Origin: a virus
Taxonomy: Duplodnaviria; Caudoviricetes
Virus record (IMG/VR): IMGVR_UViG_3300028906_000010
Location: 1 to 30,925 of that record
Length of the DNA stretch: 30,925 nt
Direction: 5' to 3' (one strand)
The position numbers were made by a program, and so were the translations under genes. Positions 2,869 to 28,324 of this stretch are shown one piece after another. The notes beneath the pieces were generated by a model. The model was not told where the DNA came from. It saw only the letters and a list, made by a program, of their open reading frames with translations, and ran no database searches. Positions within the stretch are counted from its first letter, which is position 1. Every line of letters begins with the position of its first letter.

Positions 2869-4413
2869 TCACGCGCATGCCAGGTACCCGGCGAGCATGT
2901 CGCCGATGGCCTGGTGGCCGAGGTTGGACGGATGGACGTTGTCGCCGCTCTGCCAGAATCCGTAGGCGTCGGTGTCGGCGCCCGGGATCCGCGGCCCCAT
3001 CGTGAAGTCCATGACGCTGACGAGGCTGGTGCCGCCCGGGCCGGAGGTGTCGGCCGCGGCGATGGCCCACGCCTGGGTCACGTACTGCGCCCACGGGTAG
3101 GTGTAGGTGCTCTGGAGCGTGCGCGGCGGCAGCATGGCCAGGATGAACGCCGGGTACGGGGCGGTCAGCGCGGCTTTCAGGCTGGTGATGATCTGCTTGA
3201 GGTTGGCGGCGTAGGTGGCCGGGGTGACGTTGACGTCCTGGTCGTTGGTGCCGAGGCAGATGACGATGGCGGCGGGGTTGAGCGCGGCGATCGCGGCGGC
3301 CGGCCCGGCGGTGCCGGTGGCGAGGACGCCGGTCCAGTTGCTGGTCTGCCAGCCGAAGTGCCCGGCGTCGTGGACCTGGATGCCGCTGGTGTAGTCGCCG
3401 TTGTACTCGGTGACGCCCGTGATCGAGGTCGTGGCGCCCGACACCCACGAGACCTTGAGGGTGTGCGCGCCCGCGCTGCCGAGCGGGACGTGGGTGACCT
3501 TCCCGTCGACGGTGCCGCCGCCCCCGGTCGCGACGTTCGTGACCGACCCGCCGTCCACCTGCCAGCCGAACGTGCCGCCGCCGAATACCTGCACCCAGTT
3601 GATGTCGGCCGAGTCGCCGTTCAGGTTCCAGGTGACCGTGGTGGCGCCGGAGGACAGGTTGACGAACTGGCTCTTGGGTCCGAGCGTGGCGCCGCTGCCC
3701 GGCGATCCGGCGATGGTGGACGGCCAGGTGAACGAGGTCTCGCCGGAGCTGGCCACGCCGAGGAACCCGCGGCCCCCGCCGGACAGGCCCGGCGTGGGGA
3801 ACCGGGTGCGGAGCACGTCGCGGAGCCGGCCGAGGTAGCGGTTGTCGAATGCCGTGACGTGCTGTCCTTCGGTGATCGAGTCACCGAGGCAGACGATGTT
3901 GCAGCGGGCGAACTGGCGGTTGCCCAGCGCGGCGGCCAGCGGGGTGAGCGCCTGGTAGGACTGCGCGAACGCCCACGCGGTGCCCGTGGCCGCCTCGTTG
4001 ACGACGGGGAACTGGCCGGGCTGCGCGGTCCCGGACGGCAGCGGCATCACGCCGGTCACCTGCGTGGCCGGGACATAGGCGGCGAGGCCGGAGATGTCCT
4101 GCGTGGCGCCGCTGGCGAAGTTGAGCACCACGTTCTGCGTCCACAGGGCGACGCCGCTGATGCCCTTGACGGTGAGCACCCAGTAGGTCCCGGCGGGGAT
4201 GTCCGCGTTGTCGTTGGCCATCAGCCCCGGCAGGCTGAACGTGCCGCAGGCCACGCCGTTCACCGTCGCGTTGGCCAGCGTCACCGGATCCGGCACCGGC
4301 GGGATGAGCAGGTCGTCCGTCGGGTCGGCCACCCAGCCGGACAGGGCGGCGGTCAGCACCGCGCCCCCGGCGCCAGGCAGCGTGCCGGTCAGGGTGATGT
4401 AGTTCAGGCTCAC
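2869..4413 (-). CDS. SGNH/GDSL hydrolase with N-terminal tail-protein-like domain (514 aa)
   Basis: GTG at 4413 overlaps the tape measure stop (GTGA). Blocks GDSITEG, DAGHFG, CLGTND and DNVHP are all present in order. Confidence 0.9.
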   Translation of the reverse strand: MSLNYITLTGTLPGAGGAVLTAALSGWVADPTDDLLIPPVPDPVTLANATVNGVACGTFSLPGLMANDNADIPAGTYWVLTVKGISGVALWTQNVVLNFASGATQDISGLAAYVPATQVTGVMPLPSGTAQPGQFPVVNEAATGTAWAFAQSYQALTPLAAALGNRQFARCNIVCLGDSITEGQHVTAFDNRYLGRLRDVLRTRFPTPGLSGGGRGFLGVASSGETSFTWPSTIAGSPGSGATLGPKSQFVNLSSGATTVTWNLNGDSADINWVQVFGGGTFGWQVDGGSVTNVATGGGGTVDGKVTHVPLGSAGAHTLKVSWVSGATTSITGVTEYNGDYTSGIQVHDAGHFGWQTSNWTGVLATGTAGPAAAIAALNPAAIVICLGTNDQDVNVTPATYAANLKQIITSLKAALTAPYPAFILAMLPPRTLQSTYTYPWAQYVTQAWAIAAADTSGPGGTSLVSVMDFTMGPRIPGADTDAYGFWQSGDNVHPSNLGHQAIGDMLAGYLACA

Positions 4414-9238: not shown

Positions 9239-9499
9239 TCATTCCCCTTGCTTGGGTGCGGGCGCCGCGGCGGCCGGCGGCGGTGGCTTCGGCCCGTCGG
9301 GCGTGATGACGACCGGCGTGGCGGGCGGTGGCGGGCTCTTCTCGTCCGGCGGGGTGACGAGCCTGGGCTCGTCCGGCTCGATGAGCCGCCACGGCCCCCA
9401 GTCCGGTTCGGTGTCGAACTCGCGGACGTCGCCCGGGCGGACGGTCCCGCCGTCGCCGTCGTCGTGCGGGCCGGGGCCGGTGTACTCGTACTCAGGCAT
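9239..9499 (-). CDS. Small Pro-rich protein preceding tail tube (86 aa)
   Basis: ATG in TGATG overlap with upstream stop; MPEYEYTGPGP...VRPGDVREF. Confidence 0.75.
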   Translation of the reverse strand: MPEYEYTGPGPHDDGDGGTVRPGDVREFDTEPDWGPWRLIEPDEPRLVTPPDEKSPPPPATPVVITPDGPKPPPPAAAAPAPKQGE

Positions 9500-10089
9500 C
9501 ACGCCTCCACCATGGTCATGCAGTCGAAAGTGGCCGCGATCCCGCCCTTTGTGCGGCCCCGGTTCATGACGATCCACTCGCCGGATTCGCCGATGTCGAT
9601 GCCCTGCGTGCCCTCACCGGCCTGCATGATCAGCCGGCCACCCTGCGCGGCATACAGGACGGCATTGGTCGTGCCGAGCGTGCGGTCGAGGTACAGCAGG
9701 TTCAGCCACGCGTCGATGAGGTTGTCGAGGGCCTGCTCGGCGGTCTCCAGGTGCGGGAACTCGGAGATGGCCTCGAAGCTGCACCGCGTGGTGTAGTGCC
9801 GCGAGCGCCAGCCGGACACCGGCCCGCCCATCGCGCCATCGGGCCGGCGGGCGATCCGGACCGGGCCGAGCGCCACCGTCATCACCGCGCCCCAGGCCAC
9901 GCCGTCCGCCATGCCCGCGGTGTAGTACTGGTCGGGCGCGGACTTGGGCATGTACGGGTAGGCCGTGCCGAGCCCGCTGCTGACCAGGCTTCCGCCCTGG
10001 TAGCAGATGCCCGTGTCGGTCGTGACGAGCGAGCCCCCGAAGTAGGCGGCTACGGCCTCGCGGACGAGCTGGCGGTCGCCGGCGGTCAC
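9499..10089 (-). CDS. Putative tail terminator/completion protein (196 aa)
   Basis: RQLVREAVAAYF start and LDNLIDAW...DRTLG segment; position before tail tube. Function is positional inference. Confidence 0.7.
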   Translation of the reverse strand: MTAGDRQLVREAVAAYFGGSLVTTDTGICYQGGSLVSSGLGTAYPYMPKSAPDQYYTAGMADGVAWGAVMTVALGPVRIARRPDGAMGGPVSGWRSRHYTTRCSFEAISEFPHLETAEQALDNLIDAWLNLLYLDRTLGTTNAVLYAAQGGRLIMQAGEGTQGIDIGESGEWIVMNRGRTKGGIAATFDCMTMVEA

Positions 10090-10097
10090 AGCGCACC

Positions 10098-10103
10098 TAC
10101 CAT
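10098..10103 (+). promoter_or_regulatory. Putative -10 element TACCAT of a leaderless promoter for the plus-strand gene
   Basis: TANNNT hexamer followed by 6 nt and then ATG at 10110; no Shine-Dalgarno; no clear -35. Confidence 0.55.
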
Positions 10104-10109
10104 CGGGGC

Positions 10110-10430
10110 ATGAGCCTTGACCCGGTTGACCTGGAAGCGCCCGCGAAGCTGCTGCTTCCGCCGGGCACCAGCCCCGCCGCCCGGAACGGCCGGTACATCG
10201 CTGGCCCGCAGCCAGAGGGGACAGTGCGCGTCGTGCTGCACGCGAGCAGCTACGAGGAGCCCGCCGAGTGCCGCCCGTACGACAGCTACCCCTTCGCCCC
10301 GATGGCCTACCAGGTCTATGACCTGCCGGCGGAGACCGTTGAGCGCTGGAAAGCGGCCGCAGAGGCGTTCGACGCCATGCAAGAGGAGATCGAGGCGACG
10401 ATCAGCGCGCGGGCCCAGCCGCCCGCCTAG
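10110..10430 (+). CDS. Small protein with N-terminal MCP-like peptide (106 aa); only plus-strand gene
   Basis: High GC at third codon positions; fills the gap between two minus-strand genes; stop overlaps the convergent stop (CTAG 10427-10430); LDPVDLEAPAKLLLP matches MCP residues 128-142. Confidence 0.85.
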   Translation: MSLDPVDLEAPAKLLLPPGTSPAARNGRYIAGPQPEGTVRVVLHASSYEEPAECRPYDSYPFAPMAYQVYDLPAETVERWKAAAEAFDAMQEEIEATISARAQPPA

Positions 10431-10984
10431 CACGCCAGCCCCCAGTCCAAGGCCCACGCTTCCTCGACCACACCGCGCGCGGGGATGAGGCCGCCCCACG
10501 ACACCATCAGGCCACCGCCGGCCAGCAGCGCCGCGTGACTGCCCTCCTCCAGGTCCAGACCGAGCACCACGCCTGGCAGCACGCTGTCAACAGGGAAGAA
10601 CCCGGCCAGCCGGATGCCGGCCAGCCCGTCGCACGCCGCCGCGTTGAGCGCTTCGGCGATCGTCAGGCCCTCGCCGTGGCGGAGGACCGCCTCGTCGGCC
10701 ACGCGCAGGCCAGTGGTGAACAGCAGGCTGTTGGCCACGGCCGTCATCGCGCACGTCTCGAAGAGGTCGTTGCCGCCGGCCACCCACCCGCCGGAGCACG
10801 GCGCGGCGAGCTTGCGCGCCTTCTTGGCCTTCGCCGTCTTCGCCGGGTGGCGGCGGACGTAGCGCAGGTACTGGGCGTACTGCTTGGCCGACATCTTCGG
10901 CTTCGTCGTGGTCTTCGTCGTGGCGGCGGTCTTCATCACGCCGCCGGGGTTGACCTTCGCCGTGGCGGCAGTCTTCTTGCTCAT
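10427..10984 (-). CDS. Protein with basic Lys/Thr/Ala N-terminus and putative papain-like cysteine peptidase domain (185 aa)
   Basis: GGNDLFETCAMTAVAN ... GSHAALL ... VSWG gives the Cys/His/SWG order of papain-fold enzymes; ORF is secure, function tentative. Confidence 0.55.
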   Translation of the reverse strand: MSKKTAATAKVNPGGVMKTAATTKTTTKPKMSAKQYAQYLRYVRRHPAKTAKAKKARKLAAPCSGGWVAGGNDLFETCAMTAVANSLLFTTGLRVADEAVLRHGEGLTIAEALNAAACDGLAGIRLAGFFPVDSVLPGVVLGLDLEEGSHAALLAGGGLMVSWGGLIPARGVVEEAWALDWGLAC

Positions 10985-11112
10985 GACCGGCTCCGTGGCA
11001 GCATGGACCGCAGGTGGCGCGGCGTGCAGGCGCGGCGGGCTGATCCGGGCCGGCCGGCCGGGGACCTATGCGAACTCCTGCTGCCCTTCGAACGGGTCGT
11101 CGCGCCGCTCAT
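10981..11112 (-). CDS. 43-aa Arg/Ser-rich basic peptide
   Basis: MSGATTRSKGSRSSHRSPAGRPGSARRACTPRHLRSMLPRSRS*; ATGA overlaps with both neighbouring genes; below ORF-track cutoff. Confidence 0.55.
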   Translation of the reverse strand: MSGATTRSKGSRSSHRSPAGRPGSARRACTPRHLRSMLPRSRS

Positions 11113-12071
11113 GACCGCCACACAGGCGCATAGGGCTTGAGGTACTCGTAGGCGTCGTTGACGAGGCCGCCGGACTGCCCGTGGTGGCCGCCGGAGGTGC
11201 GCGCGGCGGGCCCGAACCCGGACGCGGGCTCCTCGGCCGAGACGTCGTCGCGCATGAGCAGGGAGACGGTGTACGCGATCACCGCCTGGATGATCTTCCG
11301 GGGGAAGCCGGTTATGCCGGTCTGCGCGGCGTGCGCGAACTGGGTCGGCGCGGCGAGCGGGATGCTCGTCACCGCCGGCGGGATCGCCGGCGTAGCCGGG
11401 ACATAGGTACTGGCCACGGTCAGGGCCTCGCTCGCGCCCGTGGTCGGGTTAGTGTCGCCGACGTCGTAGATCCGCAGCACGTCACCGGGCAGGATGCCCG
11501 TGGGGTCGGTCACGCTCACCGACGCGGCGGCAGAGGTGCACGACGCCGACAGAACAGTGTTCGGGAACCCGGCCACGTACGACCAGGTGACGTACACCGG
11601 CTGCGACGGGCGCACCCTCGGCCCGAACTCCAGCGCCGGGCCGGTGAACTGGCCCAGGCCGCCGCCCGGGCGGAAGGAGACCTGCCGGCCGTCCTCCACC
11701 CACATTGTGGAGTCGGGCAGCGTGTCGGCGCTCATGCTCTCCGGGCTGGAACCCCACGACAGCGACGTGATCGCGCGCACGGGGATGTGCCGCGGCTTGA
11801 TGTACACCCGGCCGCCGCCGCCGGGCCGGGTGCGCTGGTTCTCGCCCTGCACCCAGTGGGCGTGCAGCGGCATGTTCTCGCACGCGCTGATGGCCCAGTC
11901 CGAGGCGGCGAGGAGCGCCTCGCCCAGCTCGTCGACCTGGAGCGCGGCGACGCCGCCGGGTACGAGGTTGTCGAGGTCGAGCCAGGTGGGGTAGGCGGCG
12001 AACCCGGCGGGGGTGAGGTAGGGGACCGCCAGTTCAGACTGTGTCGGCGGGGTCAGGACAGGGATCGTCAC
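11109..12071 (-). CDS. Putative head-to-tail adaptor (320 aa)
   Basis: PYLTPAGF start, LLAASDWAISAC, YVTWSYVAGF, PRKIIQAVI, LKPYAPV end; GAGGAGG Shine-Dalgarno; downstream of capsid genes. Confidence 0.78.
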   Translation of the reverse strand: MTIPVLTPPTQSELAVPYLTPAGFAAYPTWLDLDNLVPGGVAALQVDELGEALLAASDWAISACENMPLHAHWVQGENQRTRPGGGGRVYIKPRHIPVRAITSLSWGSSPESMSADTLPDSTMWVEDGRQVSFRPGGGLGQFTGPALEFGPRVRPSQPVYVTWSYVAGFPNTVLSASCTSAAASVSVTDPTGILPGDVLRIYDVGDTNPTTGASEALTVASTYVPATPAIPPAVTSIPLAAPTQFAHAAQTGITGFPRKIIQAVIAYTVSLLMRDDVSAEEPASGFGPAARTSGGHHGQSGGLVNDAYEYLKPYAPVWRS

Positions 12072-13272: not shown

Positions 13273-13658
13273 CAGGTGCCGACCGGCCCGGAGTTGCCCC
13301 CGGTGTTCAGCGCCGTCGCCAGCGTCGCCGAGAACGAGGTCACGTCGGCCGAATGCACGCTCAGGCTCACCGTCGTCGAGGTCACCAGCATCCGGACCTG
13401 GCCTATCTGCGCCTTCTTCAGCGCCGACAGGGAACCCAGGTAGGTGGCGTACGCGGTGCAGACCGCGGCGACCCCGGTGATGGTGAGGCCCTGCGTGTTC
13501 GGCGCGGCCGAGCCCGCCGTCACGGTCACGGCGGACGCAGCCGCAGCCGCGGCGCCGGCCGCGTCGCCCGCGTTGGGCAGCGGCACGGCGGCGACGAGGG
13601 CGACGAGGGGATGCCCCGCGCTCAGCGGGGTGACCGTCTGTCCCATGCCAGTGCTCAC
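13272..13658 (-). CDS. Putative virion structural protein (128 aa; alternative ATG at 13646)
   Basis: GTGA overlap with MCP stop; Ala/Thr/Val-rich. Confidence 0.65.
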   Translation of the reverse strand: MSTGMGQTVTPLSAGHPLVALVAAVPLPNAGDAAGAAAAAASAVTVTAGSAAPNTQGLTITGVAAVCTAYATYLGSLSALKKAQIGQVRMLVTSTTVSLSVHSADVTSFSATLATALNTGGNSGPVGT

Positions 13659-15613
13659 GGCACCAGCCCGACCAGGGCGCCGCTCCAGGCCGGGGCGTAG
13701 AAGATCAGCGTCCCGAGCTGGTAGGTGGACGCGTCGTAGGTGAACTGGATCTGCGGCCACATCTGGTACAGGTAGTCCTGCACGTTCTTCGCGACCACGG
13801 TGTTCGTGATCTCCGAGTCGGGGAACGGCAGGGTCTTCGTCCAGATGATCGACGCGCCGACCGGCATGTACGGGTGGACGTCGAAGTCCACCATGTCGCC
13901 CGTGACCTGGTTGGCGATCCCGTTGACGATCGCGCCGACCTCCATGCCGCCCGTGGCTTCCTGGGTGGGCATGGTGATCCGGTAGGCGGTCGACCCGCCC
14001 GCCGCGGTGCGCACGAACTGGCCCATCGCGGCGCGCACGGCGCCGTCGACGTACACGGTCTGCGGCCGGGCGAGCAGCTTCTGCCCGTAGGCGGTGCCCG
14101 CGGTCCACGGCCAGGCGGTGGCGGGCAGGCCGCCGGTCGACATGGCGTAGTTGCCGGGCTGGGTGCTCGCGCCGTACAGGGCCGCGAACGCGGCCTGCCA
14201 CGGCTTGTCACCGACCGGGGTGGGCGCGGTGCCGCCGATCAGGGTGCTGCCGCCGATCGAGTTCTGCGTGACGGCCGCGGACGCGCCGATCGCGTACGTG
14301 CCGACGTAGCCGGACAGCGACGGGTTGAGGAAGGTGGTCAGCATCCCGTCGTAGCCGTTGGGGTTGGCCGTGGTGTCGGTGATGGTCGCGATCGACGGCA
14401 GTGTCGCGCCGGCCAGGGTGACCGACGTCAGGGTGAGCAGGTTCGACGCCGCGGTGACGCCCGCGTAGGCGGCGGGGACGAAGAGCTGGAAGTAGAACGG
14501 CCCAGCGGTCGCGGAGACGTTGCCGACGTAGATGTTGAAGCCGGTCGCGCCGGACGGCAGCGCGGGCAGGCCGATGGACAGGCACTGCGGCGAGGTGATG
14601 GCCTGGGTGGCCGCGGCGGGTGCCGTGGTCTCGCCGCCGGACGCGACAGCGGTGATGACGACGAAGTAGGTGCCGGTGGTGATCGACCCGCCCGTGGTCG
14701 GCGTCGCGGACGTGGTCGCCGCGGCGGCGGGGGCGGACACCGGGCCGGTGTACCCGGCGGCGGTCGTGCCCCGGCCGTACAGCATGGCGCGTTCCTCGCC
14801 GCCCTTGTGCGCCCACAGCAGCGCGGTGGCGGAGAGCTGGCGGACGTCCTGGTAGCCCTGGCCGATGTAGTACGCCTTGGTCGACACGATGTCGGACAGC
14901 GACAGCTCGGTGTAGGTCACCTGGTGCGCGTCGGCGGCGTAGGTGATCTTCTGGCCGCGCCGCAGGCCCAGGCCGGACGACTGGCCGCCGGTCGTGTTCG
15001 CGTACCCGCCGAACTGCGGCAGGTTGTTCGTGGACTGCGCGGCCGGGTACTCCGACGCCATGAACGGCAGCAGGTCCGGGACGCCGCCGACGCCGGAGTT
15101 CGACCAGCCGAGGATCCGCCGGTACTGGATGGCGGAGCCGATGCCGTCGTTTTCCCTGGGCATGGCGTTGAGGATCGGCGTCTCGCGGGGCACCAGCAGC
15201 TTGGCCGGGCCTTCGAGGTCGATCGGGGCGAGCTGCGCGGGCACGGTCAGCGACGTCGACTCGGGGAAGCTGGCGTCCCAGTCCTTGACCAGCGACTCGC
15301 GCATGGTCTCGATCTGCGCCGACATCGCGGCGAGCTGCTCGGAGCCCACGGACTTGGTGAGCTGCTCGAGCGCGTCGAGGTTGGCCTTGCGGGTGTCCTC
15401 CCAGCCCTTCGGCGGCCGGACACCCTTCATGATCTTCCCCTTGCCGGGGAAGTAGTCGCGGCCCTCGTCGGCGCGCGCGATCGACTTGGCGATGCCGTCG
15501 TCGCCGTTGATGTACTCCTCGAACGCCTTCGTCAGCTCCGTGCTGGAGCGGTACTCAGGCTCCCAGGACACACCGCGTCGGGAACCGCCGAACAGGTCTT
15601 GCTTGGTGGGCAT
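13655..15613 (-). CDS. Major capsid protein (652 aa; probably HK97 fold, SU10-like family) with inserted Ig/Fn3-like domain
   Basis: IDLEGPAKLLVPRETPILNAMPR, EERAMLYGRG, VHPYMPVG, APAWSGALVG; insertion GGSITTGTYFVVITAV...GATGFNIYVG; follows protease and scaffold genes. Confidence 0.9.
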   Translation of the reverse strand: MPTKQDLFGGSRRGVSWEPEYRSSTELTKAFEEYINGDDGIAKSIARADEGRDYFPGKGKIMKGVRPPKGWEDTRKANLDALEQLTKSVGSEQLAAMSAQIETMRESLVKDWDASFPESTSLTVPAQLAPIDLEGPAKLLVPRETPILNAMPRENDGIGSAIQYRRILGWSNSGVGGVPDLLPFMASEYPAAQSTNNLPQFGGYANTTGGQSSGLGLRRGQKITYAADAHQVTYTELSLSDIVSTKAYYIGQGYQDVRQLSATALLWAHKGGEERAMLYGRGTTAAGYTGPVSAPAAAATTSATPTTGGSITTGTYFVVITAVASGGETTAPAAATQAITSPQCLSIGLPALPSGATGFNIYVGNVSATAGPFYFQLFVPAAYAGVTAASNLLTLTSVTLAGATLPSIATITDTTANPNGYDGMLTTFLNPSLSGYVGTYAIGASAAVTQNSIGGSTLIGGTAPTPVGDKPWQAAFAALYGASTQPGNYAMSTGGLPATAWPWTAGTAYGQKLLARPQTVYVDGAVRAAMGQFVRTAAGGSTAYRITMPTQEATGGMEVGAIVNGIANQVTGDMVDFDVHPYMPVGASIIWTKTLPFPDSEITNTVVAKNVQDYLYQMWPQIQFTYDASTYQLGTLIFYAPAWSGALVGLVP

Positions 15614-15662: not shown

Positions 15663-16733
15663 TCAGGCCGTGAGCTTGGCGGCCCTCTCATCGGTTTCGC
15701 GGGCGAGCTGGCGGTAGCCTTCGCGGTCCCCCGGGTCCGTGGCCGCGTCGGCCTTGGCCCGGTAGAGCGCTGCCTTGGCGGCCAGGTCCTCGCTGCCGGC
15801 GCTCGCGCTGCCGGAAGGGCGCGCGTTCGCGGACATGACGGGACCGCCGGGGATTGCTGTCGACTTGATCAGCTCTCTGAGCTGGCCGACTTCCGCCTTA
15901 GCCTCTGCCGCCTGAGCCTCGGCCTGCTTGATGCGGCCCTCTGAGGCTTCAGTGGCCTTCGCCACAGCGTCTTCGACGGCCTTCGCGATAGTGCCGTCCG
16001 GGTCAGTTTGCACGCTGGTCTCGCCTTCCGCAACCGCGGACTTGCCCGCGTCGTCGCTCACATCGATGCCGAACTTCTTCGCCGCGGCGTGAACCTTGGC
16101 CTTGGCCTTGTCACCGAACGGGCTGGACGGCAGCCGGGCCAGCGCGTTCTGCGCGTGCGCCTTGTCGTGGACGGGGAAGTGGCGCTTGGACCGCGGCGTG
16201 GTCTTGCCGTCGGCGTCTTTCTTGCCGCCGTCCTCGATGTAGGCGAACGCCGAGTCGGGCAGGTCGTCCTGGTCGGCCGACGACATCGCGGCCTTGACCG
16301 CGTCGGCCAGCGCGGTGCTGGCCATGACGACGCCGTCCCACGCGCCCTGCTGCGCCGGGGCCGACTCCCGCGAGATCCAGCAGTTGATCATGCTGGCCGC
16401 GTCGTTGAGCAGCCCGACGTCGCACGTCTCGCCGTACGACCCGGCGGCGATCTCGTCGGCCTCGTTGGCGATGGCCTTGCCGAGCAGCACCATGATCTGC
16501 TGGCCCAGGTCGATGTCGGGGGCCTCGTCGATCTTCCCGCGGGTGACGGCCTTGACGGCCAGGTCCACGGCGGACGGCTCGGCCGGGTCAGCGGCGGCGG
16601 CTGGGGCGTCCTCAGCCGCGACACCCTTCATGATCAGGTGCGGGAAGCCGTTGGCGCCCATCGGGACGCCCTTGACCGACTCCACGTCGATGATCTCGAA
16701 CTCCGTGACCTCGTCCTCAGTGGCGGTGTCCAT
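15663..16733 (-). CDS. Putative scaffolding/head maturation protein with DUF6582-like domain (356 aa)
   Basis: ATG at 16733; DLPDSAFAY...RHFPVHDKAHAQNALARL...AAAKKFGI; C-terminal coiled coil; between protease and MCP. Confidence 0.7.
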   Translation of the reverse strand: MDTATEDEVTEFEIIDVESVKGVPMGANGFPHLIMKGVAAEDAPAAAADPAEPSAVDLAVKAVTRGKIDEAPDIDLGQQIMVLLGKAIANEADEIAAGSYGETCDVGLLNDAASMINCWISRESAPAQQGAWDGVVMASTALADAVKAAMSSADQDDLPDSAFAYIEDGGKKDADGKTTPRSKRHFPVHDKAHAQNALARLPSSPFGDKAKAKVHAAAKKFGIDVSDDAGKSAVAEGETSVQTDPDGTIAKAVEDAVAKATEASEGRIKQAEAQAAEAKAEVGQLRELIKSTAIPGGPVMSANARPSGSASAGSEDLAAKAALYRAKADAATDPGDREGYRQLARETDERAAKLTA

Positions 16734-24691: not shown

Positions 24692-24712
24692 GCCGATGGC
24701 GGCCGGCCGCGC

Positions 24713-24898
24713 TCACCTGACCGGCTCGCAGTACCCGCCGCGGAACTCCCCGGTCCGCCGCGGCGGCGCGAGCGGGCAGGTGACGTGGCCGAACACGATC
24801 ACGTCGGCGAAGCATCCGCACGGCCGCGGCGGTGCGGGCGGCTGGAACGCGGTCAGCCAGCGGTCGCGTGCGGCGGCCGCGTAGTCCACGAGGCTCAT
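24713..24898 (-). CDS. Small Cys-containing hypothetical protein (61 aa)
   Basis: ATG behind AGGAG; MSLVDYAAAARDRW...CGC...HVTC. Confidence 0.65.
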   Translation of the reverse strand: MSLVDYAAAARDRWLTAFQPPAPPRPCGCFADVIVFGHVTCPLAPPRRTGEFRGGYCEPVR

Positions 24899-25533: not shown

Positions 25534-26025
25534 TCAGGCACCGTCCGGCAGGATGCCGTTCAGCCTGGCTATCGACGCGGTGTCACCGTGGCTGAGCGCC
25601 ACCTTGCGCATCCTGTACAGGCCGGTGACCCACTGCCTCTCGGTCATCGGCACCCATTCCCTGCCGCTCAGCCAGCCCTGGGCCGGCTCGTTCACGGGCA
25701 GCACCTTGAATGCCCATATGCCAGGCCAGTACCGGGCGATGAAGAATGGCAACTGCTCGCCGCGCTCGTTGTAGAGGCTCGACAGTGCCTTGAATGTGAA
25801 GCCGTTGGTGTTCCCAAGGGTTGCTCCCTGCCACTTGTAGTCGACGAGCACAACCGGGATTCCGCGGTTGAACTCGCACATGAGGAAGTCGAGGTCCACG
25901 GCCGGGCAGTTCTGGCCCCAGGCGTAGTGGCGTTCTGACAGCTCACGGTCATGAGCCATGCGGGCATCGGCGTTGACGCGCGAACCCCAGCTCGCATTCC
26001 TGCCGCCGATCGCTGAGGCGGTCAT
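25534..26025 (-). CDS. Putative PD-(D/E)xK nuclease-fold protein (163 aa)
   Basis: AVDLDFLMCE...PVVLVDYK; ATGA-coupled to the methyltransferase; function tentative. Confidence 0.55.
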   Translation of the reverse strand: MTASAIGGRNASWGSRVNADARMAHDRELSERHYAWGQNCPAVDLDFLMCEFNRGIPVVLVDYKWQGATLGNTNGFTFKALSSLYNERGEQLPFFIARYWPGIWAFKVLPVNEPAQGWLSGREWVPMTERQWVTGLYRMRKVALSHGDTASIARLNGILPDGA

Positions 26026-26804
26026 TGCAGCCGGCCTGCGGCGGTCTGGTAGTCGACGGCGCTTATTTCGCAGCCGATGAACTGACGGCTGAGCGAGAGC
26101 GCGGCGACGCCGGTCGTCCCGGCACCCATGAACGGGTCAACGATCAGTTCCCCGGGGCGGGTGAGCCGTTTCACGAGGTCGGCCATTCCTGATTCGGACT
26201 GGCCCCAGTGGTGCAGCCGCTTGTCGTTGTCGTTGACATCGCTCTTGGCCACGTCGCCGAACCACTCGGGCTGCGGGCCGTCGCCGTTGCGGTAGATCAG
26301 GACTGGCTTCCAGAACGTGTTGACTCTGCGCGGGAACACCTGCACGGCCTGTCCGCCCGGCGTGAGGTAGGCGAGCGTCCACCAGTAGTCGAGATGCTCG
26401 CCCAGGCGCGAGACGACCTCGGGCAGGTGGATCTGCCCGGACATGGCGGCGAGGACGCCGCCGGGCTTCAGCCACTTCGCCGCGTGCTCCGCAAGATCGC
26501 TCCAGAGCGGGAGGAACTCGCGCGGGTAGGGCGGGTCGGTGATCACCGCGTCGGCCGAGCCCGGAATCAGGTCACAGAGGGTGGTGCGAAAGTCACCAAT
26601 ACGCACATCTGCTGTAACATTCTGACCCGCTTTTTGTGACACCATGGATGCCGGTCTTGGGTGCCTTTCGTACCATTCCGCAAGATCTCGCTTGACGGTC
26701 ATGTGGCTGGCTTTGAGTTCCGCGGCGATCTGGCGCAGCGACCATCCTTGTGCGTCAAGCTCTGCCGCTCGCCGTCGACGCGTGGTAACGCGTTTCGCTG
26801 TCAC
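26022..26804 (-). CDS. HTH-fused N4/N6 DNA methyltransferase, beta class (about 260 aa; start uncertain)
   Basis: HTH GWSLRQIAAELKASHMTVKRDL; motif IV ITDPPY precedes motif I VDPFMGAGTT. Confidence 0.88.
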   Translation of the reverse strand: MTAKRVTTRRRRAAELDAQGWSLRQIAAELKASHMTVKRDLAEWYERHPRPASMVSQKAGQNVTADVRIGDFRTTLCDLIPGSADAVITDPPYPREFLPLWSDLAEHAAKWLKPGGVLAAMSGQIHLPEVVSRLGEHLDYWWTLAYLTPGGQAVQVFPRRVNTFWKPVLIYRNGDGPQPEWFGDVAKSDVNDNDKRLHHWGQSESGMADLVKRLTRPGELIVDPFMGAGTTGVAALSLSRQFIGCEISAVDYQTAAGRLQ

Positions 26805-26825
26805 GTCCTGGCGGCCGGTAACGCT

Positions 26826-26951
26826 CCGGCCTGCGCTCTGTGCGCCAGGTAGGGCCCCGCAGGCCGGGGACTCCAGTTCCGGCCTGCGGGGCGCAGCCCG
26901 GCGGGGGTCCGGGCTGCCGTGGGGGGCTCTTCCGCTGCCTGCTCTCAGCGG
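26826..26951. other. Cluster of GC-rich hairpins in an intergenic gap (terminator or structured RNA)
   Basis: 14-bp stem 26854-26867/26879-26892, 9-bp stem 26893-26901/26909-26917, 6-bp stem 26932-26937/26946-26951; no U-tract. Confidence 0.55.
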
Positions 26952-26967
26952 TGGCCGCGCCGCACGT

Positions 26968-27141
26968 CTAGGGCTGGTGGTCTCTCCAGCGGCCGAACGC
27001 TGCCCAGCCGTCCTCTTGCAGCCAGTCCCTGAACTGCTCGGCGTCGCTGTCACCGTTGAAGACGAGGAGGACTTCGTGGTCGGGCACGGTCTCGGTGAGA
27101 GTGCGCTGGGTGGGCATCTCGGGGAACGGGATCTCGGTCAT
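26968..27141 (-). CDS. Hypothetical protein (57 aa)
   Basis: Not in ORF track; ATGA overlap and GGAGG; MTEIPFPEMPTQRTLTETVPDHEVLLVFNGDSDAEQFRDWLQEDGWAAFGRWRDHQP*. Confidence 0.8.
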   Translation of the reverse strand: MTEIPFPEMPTQRTLTETVPDHEVLLVFNGDSDAEQFRDWLQEDGWAAFGRWRDHQP

Positions 27142-27478: not shown

Positions 27479-28324
27479 TCACGGTGTGCAGGTCTCCTCG
27501 AGGTCGAGGGTGGCGGCGAGCTGGAACGGCCGGTTGGACCACAGCACCTCGGTGCGCTCTTTCTGGGCGACCGCGTTGCCGGTGAACGCCTTCAGCTCGA
27601 CGCGGTCCCACGCGCTGTACAGATCGTCGTAGAGCGGGCTGTGGTAGCCGGACAGGACGACTGCGGCCCGGGCCGCGTGCAGGGCCTCGGCTAGCTCGAT
27701 GTGCTCGGCGGCGGTGCGCATTTCGCGGCTGTAGACCGCTCCGTGGCCACCGTGGGATCGGGTGCTGTCGAGGTAGGGCGGGTCAGCGTAGATGAGGACG
27801 CTGGGGTGCTTGCCGTAAGCGGCGATGACGTCGAGGGCCGGGCGGCACTCGAGCGAGACGCGGGAGATGCGCTGGGCGGCTGGCGGGATCCGGGCGGTGT
27901 AGGCCTCGAGGTACTGGGGCCGGCCCGCGCCGTTTTGCTTGGCCTCGTTGAAGCACCAGCCGGTGCGCTGGCCGAGCATGCCGCCGCGGCCCTGGGTGAG
28001 CCGCACCCAGATGCGCCGGGCCCGCTCGAGGTCGTCTAGCGGGTCGACGAGCGGTTCCAGGGAGACCTGGTGCTCGGCGCGGGAATGCGGGGTCAGCGCG
28101 CAGACGCGTTCCAGGTCCTGAGACCGGTCGCGGAGGACGCGCCAGAAGTTCATCAGCTCGTGCTCGAGGTCGTTGACCGTCTCCATGTGGCTGCGCGGCT
28201 TGGCCAGCAGCACGGCGAGCGAGCCGGCGAACGGCTCGACGTAGTGCTCGTGCGCGGGCAGCAGCGACACGATCTGCGGCGCGATCGAGGTCTTGCCGCC
28301 GAAGTAGGTGAACGGCGGTTTCAT
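27479..28324 (-). CDS. DNA adenine methyltransferase, Dam/D12 class (281 aa)
   Basis: MKPPFTYFGGK, YVEPFAGS, ETVNDL, YADPPY, VVLSGY, TEVLWSN. Confidence 0.93.
   Translation of the reverse strand: MKPPFTYFGGKTSIAPQIVSLLPAHEHYVEPFAGSLAVLLAKPRSHMETVNDLEHELMNFWRVLRDRSQDLERVCALTPHSRAEHQVSLEPLVDPLDDLERARRIWVRLTQGRGGMLGQRTGWCFNEAKQNGAGRPQYLEAYTARIPPAAQRISRVSLECRPALDVIAAYGKHPSVLIYADPPYLDSTRSHGGHGAVYSREMRTAAEHIELAEALHAARAAVVLSGYHSPLYDDLYSAWDRVELKAFTGNAVAQKERTEVLWSNRPFQLAATLDLEETCTP

Follow-up and report, generated by a model that had tools for sequence, protein, structure and literature searches.

The window, by which we mean the whole stretch of DNA analysed here (30,925 nucleotides), is the record IMGVR_UViG_3300028906_000010, a 30.9-kb phage record that is 65% complete and has a GC content of about 71%; from the GC and gene content we infer an actinobacterial host. 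Its minus strand carries the terminase, portal, XkdF protease, phrog_13692, tail tube, neck and tape measure genes. The plus strand carries a gene, designated X, which an earlier note on this DNA had described as the sole antisense gene. It was indeed the only solid plus-strand gene among 44 codon-model gene calls; a second plus-strand call (24696-24884) scored 8, compared with 27 for X. The GC values at the three codon positions of X (0.72/0.51/0.89) follow a coding pattern. The features of the locus are as follows (MCP, major capsid protein).

10110..10430, plus strand: gene X, 106 amino acids; a capsid N-arm-like peptide joined to a small domain
10116..10160, plus strand: X residues 3-17, copy of MCP residues 128-142 (box 1 and part of the helix), from alignment
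10194..10415, plus strand: conserved core of X, residues 29-102, from alignment and structure model
10098..10103, plus strand: TACCAT, -10-like box of a predicted leaderless promoter, 6 nt before the ATG; also present in loci L013 and L021
9499..10089, minus strand: late gene, 196 amino acids, head-to-head with X and marking the insertion slot; conserved in 8 of 11 related loci
10427..10984, minus strand: neighbouring late-strand gene, 185 amino acids, basic N-terminus; its stop overlaps the X stop
13655..15613, minus strand: MCP gene, 652 amino acids, phrog_13692 (E 2.9e-60), from profile match and structure comparison
15188..15232, minus strand: MCP residues 128-142, the copied N-arm segment, from alignment

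Predicted promoter and genomic setting of gene X

The TACCAT-N6-ATG signature reported earlier was present at 10098-10103. An xAxxxT box 6-8 nt before the first start codon was found in all 10 antisense units, compared with 9 of 127 late-strand genes, the latter being a rough count based on automatic starts. A sigma-70 promoter scan, which requires a -35 box, returned no sites. On the minus strand, the divergent late gene that starts at 10089 has a purine-rich ribosome-binding site, with which TACCAT overlaps; a single 20-nt stretch thus holds both the -10 box of X and the ribosome-binding site of the divergent gene in the window (10090-10109), L013 (2159-2178) and L021 (8206-8225). At its other end, the stop of X overlaps or abuts the stop of the upstream late gene in the same three loci.

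The X loci numbered 17 (the window, which is also L012, together with L013 and L014-L028), with near-duplicates among them (L017/18, L019/20 and L023-26). X was antisense inside the virion operon in 15 of the 17 (the window, L013 and L014-L026); the distant L027-L028 were the only loci in which it was co-oriented. The slots of the antisense copies varied: L021 shares that of the window, and elsewhere X lies directly behind or ahead of MCP genes or between tail genes, usually within a few genes of MCP. The distribution of X is patchy: none of 11 records related to the window through MCP carried it, and X was found in none of the eight related loci spanning the slot beside 9499-10089, while L021 has X there. 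Tyrosine integrase genes were found in two of five X-carrying records and in three of four relatives of the window's clade (a fifth record in this second search, G023, belongs to an unrelated phage and had none); no integrase was found on the window record, which is 65% complete. The likeness to a moron drawn in the earlier note holds for an accessory antisense insertion behind a -10 box and fails for an own terminator and a lower GC content, because 9400-11200 contained no terminator-like site in a scan that requires a T run and the GC of 0.716 in 10001-10500 was the same as in the rest of the window.

The neighbouring gene at 10427-10984 was considered as an anti-X gene and rejected, being missing beside X in L013 and L021 and hence no obligatory partner; the neighbours of X differ between loci. 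A weak relative of it occurs in G009, a record without X. No conserved anti-X gene was found beside X among the X loci.

Several further observations were made on these regions. The slot between 10089 and 11109 holds unrelated late-strand insertions in L004, L006 and L007 and is an insertion hot spot; the insertions in relatives are a lysine-rich repeat gene, cysteine-rich small genes and a 1.3-kb block. In L014-L026, the late region is interspersed with several small antisense operons, each preceded by a -10 box of the leaderless type; some of their genes match phrog_6326, and fusions and splits are frequent. The 72-kb record G009 (L067, L069-L070) seemingly contains two head-tail gene sets and may be two prophages or a chimera. 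Elsewhere on the minus strand of the window, 2869-4413 encodes an SGNH/GDSL hydrolase fused to a tail-region protein, and 26022-27053 and 27479-28324 encode two DNA methyltransferases (PF01555 and PF02086).

The core of X

The structure model of X (mean pLDDT 84.8, about 55 for residues 1-20) shows a core in which three short strands (38-44, 53-56 and 69-73) precede a single long helix (74-102). This core was assigned to no family in Pfam, PHROG or PADLOC, and 61 X members gave single weak PADLOC and PHROG matches only (PADLOC version of 2023). A fold search with the model (VIA) returned nothing clear, the best match being a PWWP domain (Z 4.0, rmsd 3.9, 67 aligned). A fold search of BFVD (0 of 485 matches at E≤0.001), a sequence search of the PDB (none under E 0.36) and an Atlas feature search (no usable match) were negative as well. 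Species genomes, two of three viral scans and a search of phage isolates (best E 0.4) yielded no confirmed relative of X.

The major capsid protein and its N-arm

The MCP model (mean pLDDT 60) matched HK97-fold capsids by Foldseek (SU10, E 4.5e-5), and VIA aligned it with the SPO1 capsid (Z 16.7, rmsd 6.0, 268 aligned) and with HK97 1ohg (Z 13.2, rmsd 4.9, 247 aligned; model 117-652 on chain 104-383). Upstream of the MCP gene are the portal, XkdF protease and terminase genes, and the protein thus has the characters of an HK97-fold MCP. Residue K110 was invariant in 124 MCPs and is likely the maturation site, as predicted; D132, L133, L140 and V141 were at least 90% conserved in 35 MCPs. The earlier note had placed the motif in the N-arm after the predicted maturation site, in agreement with residues 128-150 of this HK97-fold protein lying between K110 and the E-loop. 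On the basis of this position and of the structural alignment range (modelled contacts play no part), MCP 128-150 is assigned in the model as the N-arm plus a short helix before the E-loop; the model has a pLDDT under 50 over 103-143.

In addition, a beta-sandwich is inserted behind the spine helix of MCP, at residues about 295-410; its sequence weakly matches the phage structural proteins 26fb_K (E 0.08) and 8jov_A (E 0.37). The head protease may be split between XkdF (PF14550, 16736-17275, minus strand) and the N-terminus of the next gene (15663-16733, minus strand), which presumably resembles the last strand motif of HK97-type proteases. AK-type sites recur in the window MCP, the split-protease candidate and the portal.

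X begins with a likeness to the capsid N-arm

Alignment of X residues 3-17 with MCP residues 128-142 gave 11 identities in 15 residues and 33 in 45 nucleotides, the same counts as before. The mismatches had been listed as conservative V/I, A/G and L/V, which they are; a fourth, D/A, had not been listed. The match extends to X residue 20, and the window member is faithful to MCP in box 1 and the helix while its box 2 is degenerate. Pairwise BLASTP of X against MCP gave E 7.5e-5. The raw score of 60 was reached by none of 3000 shuffles, and by 2 of 300 shuffles when all window proteins served as targets; the next-best scores among the 528 real pairs in the window were 59 and 57. Because shuffles reach the score and other real pairs come so near it, the likeness from the window alone is suggestive and not decisive.

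The X family was decisive for removing the chance reading. Of 3735 candidates screened with a profile, 63 proteins were retrieved, and 61 of these reached E≤3e-14 (hereafter close homologues). The X profile was composed of 46 members with the N-terminal extension; two locus proteins were added, and the window protein and 16 short or divergent proteins were left out. Against a profile of 35 MCPs it gave a single match, at MCP 126-150 (E 1.2e-5, probability 81). The rest of X had been called unrelated to MCP, and the comparison agrees, matching the N-arm only over 25 columns; for the same reason, we rejected the idea of X as a whole being a reduced MCP (E-loop and spine helix). An MCP-motif HMM, applied with no selection for the N-terminal extension, gave at least 5 bits in 23 of 60 homologues compared with 6 of 3050 shuffles. 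Among 271 called proteins it ranked seven MCPs first and, directly after them, five X proteins. MCP residues that are missing in the window X are present in homologues, namely LVPRLT (L013), VPRATPLR (L021) and TPFRD (L016).

Different codons are used at 5 of the 11 identical residues, as had been noted, and the 6 identical codons compare with 6.1 predicted by codon usage alone. Since the shared codons are as expected from usage, the likeness is at the protein level and bears no trace of recent duplication. Together with the family profile match, this bears out the earlier proposal of selection on the peptide as opposed to a recent DNA duplication. Judged from these sequence comparisons, the mimicry of the capsid N-arm by X is real, selected and family-wide.

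Two boxes of the motif and the match of box 1 with MCP clades

Two boxes are kept in the motif, one ending in DL (box 1, MCP 127-133) and one of the TPxR type (box 2, MCP 142-149). Box 2, the tracking of MCP clades and the reuse by other proteins described below are additional to the earlier description. The box spacing is 14-15 in MCPs and 10-23, most often 15, in X, and in most X members box 1 is followed by Pro-Pro, at a position that is helical in the MCP model.

Box 1 of the window X scored 22.0 with its own MCP clade compared with 5.6 with clade 2, the window being the single cognate case for its clade. For X genes from clade-2 contexts, clade 2 scored best with box 1 in 6 of 6; one of these records (that of L016) is without MCP and another (that of L022) holds the MCP C-terminal part only. 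When both boxes were scored together, three of the six (L014, L022 and L023) scored best with the non-cognate clade. In these scores, the clade signal is confined to box 1. On a core-only tree of X, built from 66 rows and 76 columns and with rough support values, 7 changes are required to explain the motif type of the window, at least 4 of them being forced by well-supported branches. These changes indicate that the peptide has been swapped or retuned independently of the core.

An exhaustive search returned 93 proteins, of which 79 were new and more distant and one, of 1251 amino acids, was dropped. Both boxes scored above all 30 own shuffles in 14 of the 79 more distant members, in a search whose motif-containing query profile favours such matches; most of the remainder were core-only proteins without the motif. 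Some members lack or have lost the motif, and a few hold it internally after long fusions. Homologues devoid of the peptide, the counter-evidence named in the earlier note, did not turn up among the close relatives, although the distant core-only relatives are without it. A distant relative in L027-L028 is co-oriented and has a RusA gene beside it in a replication region; L028 comes from G023, a 99%-complete record of an unrelated phage that has no member of this MCP family and matches the X core only. On account of the core-only relatives and of G023, an older accessory domain has probably gained a capsid peptide in this lineage.

These data also bear on the possibility that recombination long ago joined a piece of MCP to a small accessory gene and that the peptide is its functionless remnant. 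In favour of such an origin, core-only relatives are numerous, and recombination is frequent in the antisense clusters (L019 and P0190-P0197 contain fusions, L015 a split). Against it, the linkers change but both boxes are retained in proteins that are only 30-60% alike, synonymous differences are saturated, and the variants match different MCP clades. We consider this explanation highly improbable.

Reuse of the motif by portals and other antisense genes

The two MCP boxes were also found on three antisense genes unrelated to X, all on the plus strand: L015 9591-10025, L014 17080-17394 and L019 18419-18847. The first has a zinc-finger-like, cysteine-rich insert between the boxes, and the X gene adjacent to it has lost the first box. 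In a motif scan of 727 called proteins from ten records, a score of at least 36 was reached by 15 proteins compared with 3 of 2181 shuffles. The 15 were nine MCPs, two X proteins, L014 17080, the twin portals of G003 and G004, and a portal fragment of G001, whose score is probably due to chance. The L015 and L019 genes fall below the mark of 36 and were assigned by inspection.

Furthermore, in 3 of 3 distinct clade-2 portals the tail contains a copy of the mature MCP N-terminus, in which a GIT..TG.Y.YD stretch comes after an AK site. These portal genes are as follows.

L059:4712-7201 (G004): clade-2 portal with a C-terminal copy of the MCP N-terminus between two AK sites
L058:9780-12269 (G003): clade-2 portal with the same copy between two AK sites
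L052:17324-19999 (G001): further clade-2 portal with a tail copy between two AK sites
L065:14431-17559 (G005): further clade-2 portal with a tail copy between two AK sites

In the G004 portal, a NUDIX domain directly follows the copy. No tail copy was evident by eye in the window's portal or in 7 of 7 clade-1 portals. The reuse of the motif by portal tails and by three unrelated antisense genes suggests, from sequence, that it is a portable head-assembly docking peptide that would act in trans on an assembly partner.

Such a peptide could be a capsid-loading tag: X would be made early, dock on the scaffold, portal or MCP, and be packaged and delivered to the next host. The presence of the motif on several unrelated bodies, the copies in the clade-2 portal tails and the NUDIX domain after one of them are in line with this explanation, as are the internal proteins of T4, which are diverse small bodies sharing one short conserved prohead-addressing tag (PMC3012670). 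On the other hand, a box spacing of 10-23 residues is loose for a housekeeping tag, the clade-1 portals show no evident copy, and by eye X has no predicted protease site before or after the tag. The account of the T4 tag in that source makes no mention of copying the capsid protein, and encapsidation of X is hypothetical. We regard a loading tag as unlikely, while placing it second among the readings.

A search for antisense genes mimicking other virion proteins, with 54 plus-strand against 182 minus-strand called proteins, gave 14 weak matches at E≤0.5, of which 6 were the MCP motif. Many other antisense genes in these phages show no capsid likeness, and antisense orientation alone is therefore not specific to defence.

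Discussion

The capsid N-arm binds the scaffold in proheads and the E-loop of a neighbour in mature heads (PMC11922011, PMC5644958). The reading that we favour, tentatively and with a little less than even confidence, is that X is a prophage-expressed decoy N-arm that blocks the head assembly of related superinfecting phages. A leaderless X transcript would be made from the prophage by host RNA polymerase, and the X peptide would occupy the site of the true N-arm on a neighbouring capsid subunit or on the scaffold or portal. Because X lacks a body that could form a shell, and most members have Pro-Pro or a longer linker in place of the MCP helix, the intermediate would be capped or mis-assembled. 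On induction, strong opposing late transcription would silence X, and excess MCP would titrate the remainder; we propose that no anti-X gene is therefore needed. All steps of this mechanism beyond the sequence likeness are conjectural.

The restriction of the profile match to the N-arm, the cognate box 1 and the fast turnover of the motif on the core tree argue for such a blocker, as do the antisense position in the virion operon, the -10 box, the patchiness, the integrases in some relatives and a layout like that of Tab. Less favourable are the window record without integrase, the lack of a conserved anti-gene, the restriction of the clade signal to box 1 and the several members without the motif; moreover, the reuse in portal tails fits a loading tag equally well.

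Tab, made by the Pseudomonas prophage JBD26, prevents closely related phages from assembling their virions (PMC10884400). Like Tab, X is a small opposite-strand gene inside a late operon with its own promoter (predicted for X), and both carry a risk of self-targeting. Tab interferes with tail assembly by way of the tape measure protein and is paired with a dedicated anti-Tab, whereas X points at the head, copies its likely target and has no conserved anti-gene, so that its self-protection rests on inference. The main text on Tab never uses the word 'mimic', and within the scope of PADLOC and PHROG searches the X family showed no detected sequence in common with Tab. Tai proteins, like X as proposed here, are small mobile-element proteins interfering with virion assembly, but their targets are the central tail fibre or the tail needle, and their description in PMC11364771 includes no capsid N-arm copy.

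Among proteins that act on capsids, CpmB of SaPI competes with the scaffold for a capsid-protein site involving the N-arm (PMC5644958), and SaPI Ccm is a capsid-protein homologue that interferes with helper head assembly (PMC8569155). Both are encoded by satellites, whereas X is encoded by a phage and copies only about 25 capsid-protein residues. X as a Ccm-like capsid homologue was ruled out by the 25-column match and a predicted core of three strands and a helix. In the noncontiguous Tha/Ith operons of S. aureus prophages, an antisense gene with its own promoter is switched between lysogeny and lysis by opposing transcription (PMC11087260). There, the antisense gene is an inhibitor of a HEPN toxin and is located in the lysogeny region; X has no HEPN-related domain and is located in the late operon. 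It is in view of the N-arm roles, the Tab layout and the opposing-transcription switch that a lysogen-expressed blocker is ranked first and the loading tag second.

Expression before the late genes, as the predicted host-polymerase-type promoter would give, could instead serve counter-defence. X would then soak up a host sensor or protease that recognises the MCP N-arm and thereby protect its own MCP. In the Gol/Lit system, Lit exclusion is set off by a short conserved peptide located in the first quarter of gp23 of T4 (PMC3014915), and the match of box 1 with the own MCP clade and the quick turnover of the motif would suit a decoy of this kind. Nevertheless, a faithful copy of a trigger peptide might activate the sensor rather than block it, the portal-tail reuse points to a partner inside the assembly pathway, and a capsid sensor in these hosts is hypothetical. 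This explanation is also unlikely, slightly more so than the loading tag.

The cognate box 1 and the closeness of X to MCP in most loci would likewise be expected if X tuned assembly, delaying or chaperoning its own MCP until late expression is high; the N-arm does control maturation (PMC11922011). Yet the absence of X from all 11 related records and its movement between slots are unlike a core assembly gene, and the antisense position predicts that X is shut off just when heads are built. A role as assembly tuner is accordingly quite improbable, below that of a counter-defence decoy.

Returning to the lysogen-expressed blocker, its wider form would be a phage-versus-phage defence, as yet undescribed as a class, by self-mimicry at the head: an antisense family carrying a retunable copy of the N-arm, which is also native in portal tails, would poison the head assembly of relatives. 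We think this possible, and hold it somewhat more loosely than the blocking role of X itself. In the reports cited, Tab and Tai act on tails, and the interferers with capsids are satellite proteins that replace the scaffold or are capsid homologues. A literature search covering mainly openly accessible papers found no report of a capsid N-arm mimic.

If the blocker reading holds, X would represent a new variant of assembly interference and a new route to superinfection defence. X names its own target site in its own sequence, which makes the proposal directly testable, and the natural variants, with two fixed boxes and a free linker, may map the N-arm residues that dock in trans. A short peptide inhibitor of HK97-type head assembly would also be a useful tool. 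Under the rival reading, the X motif would be a capsid-loading tag for these phages.
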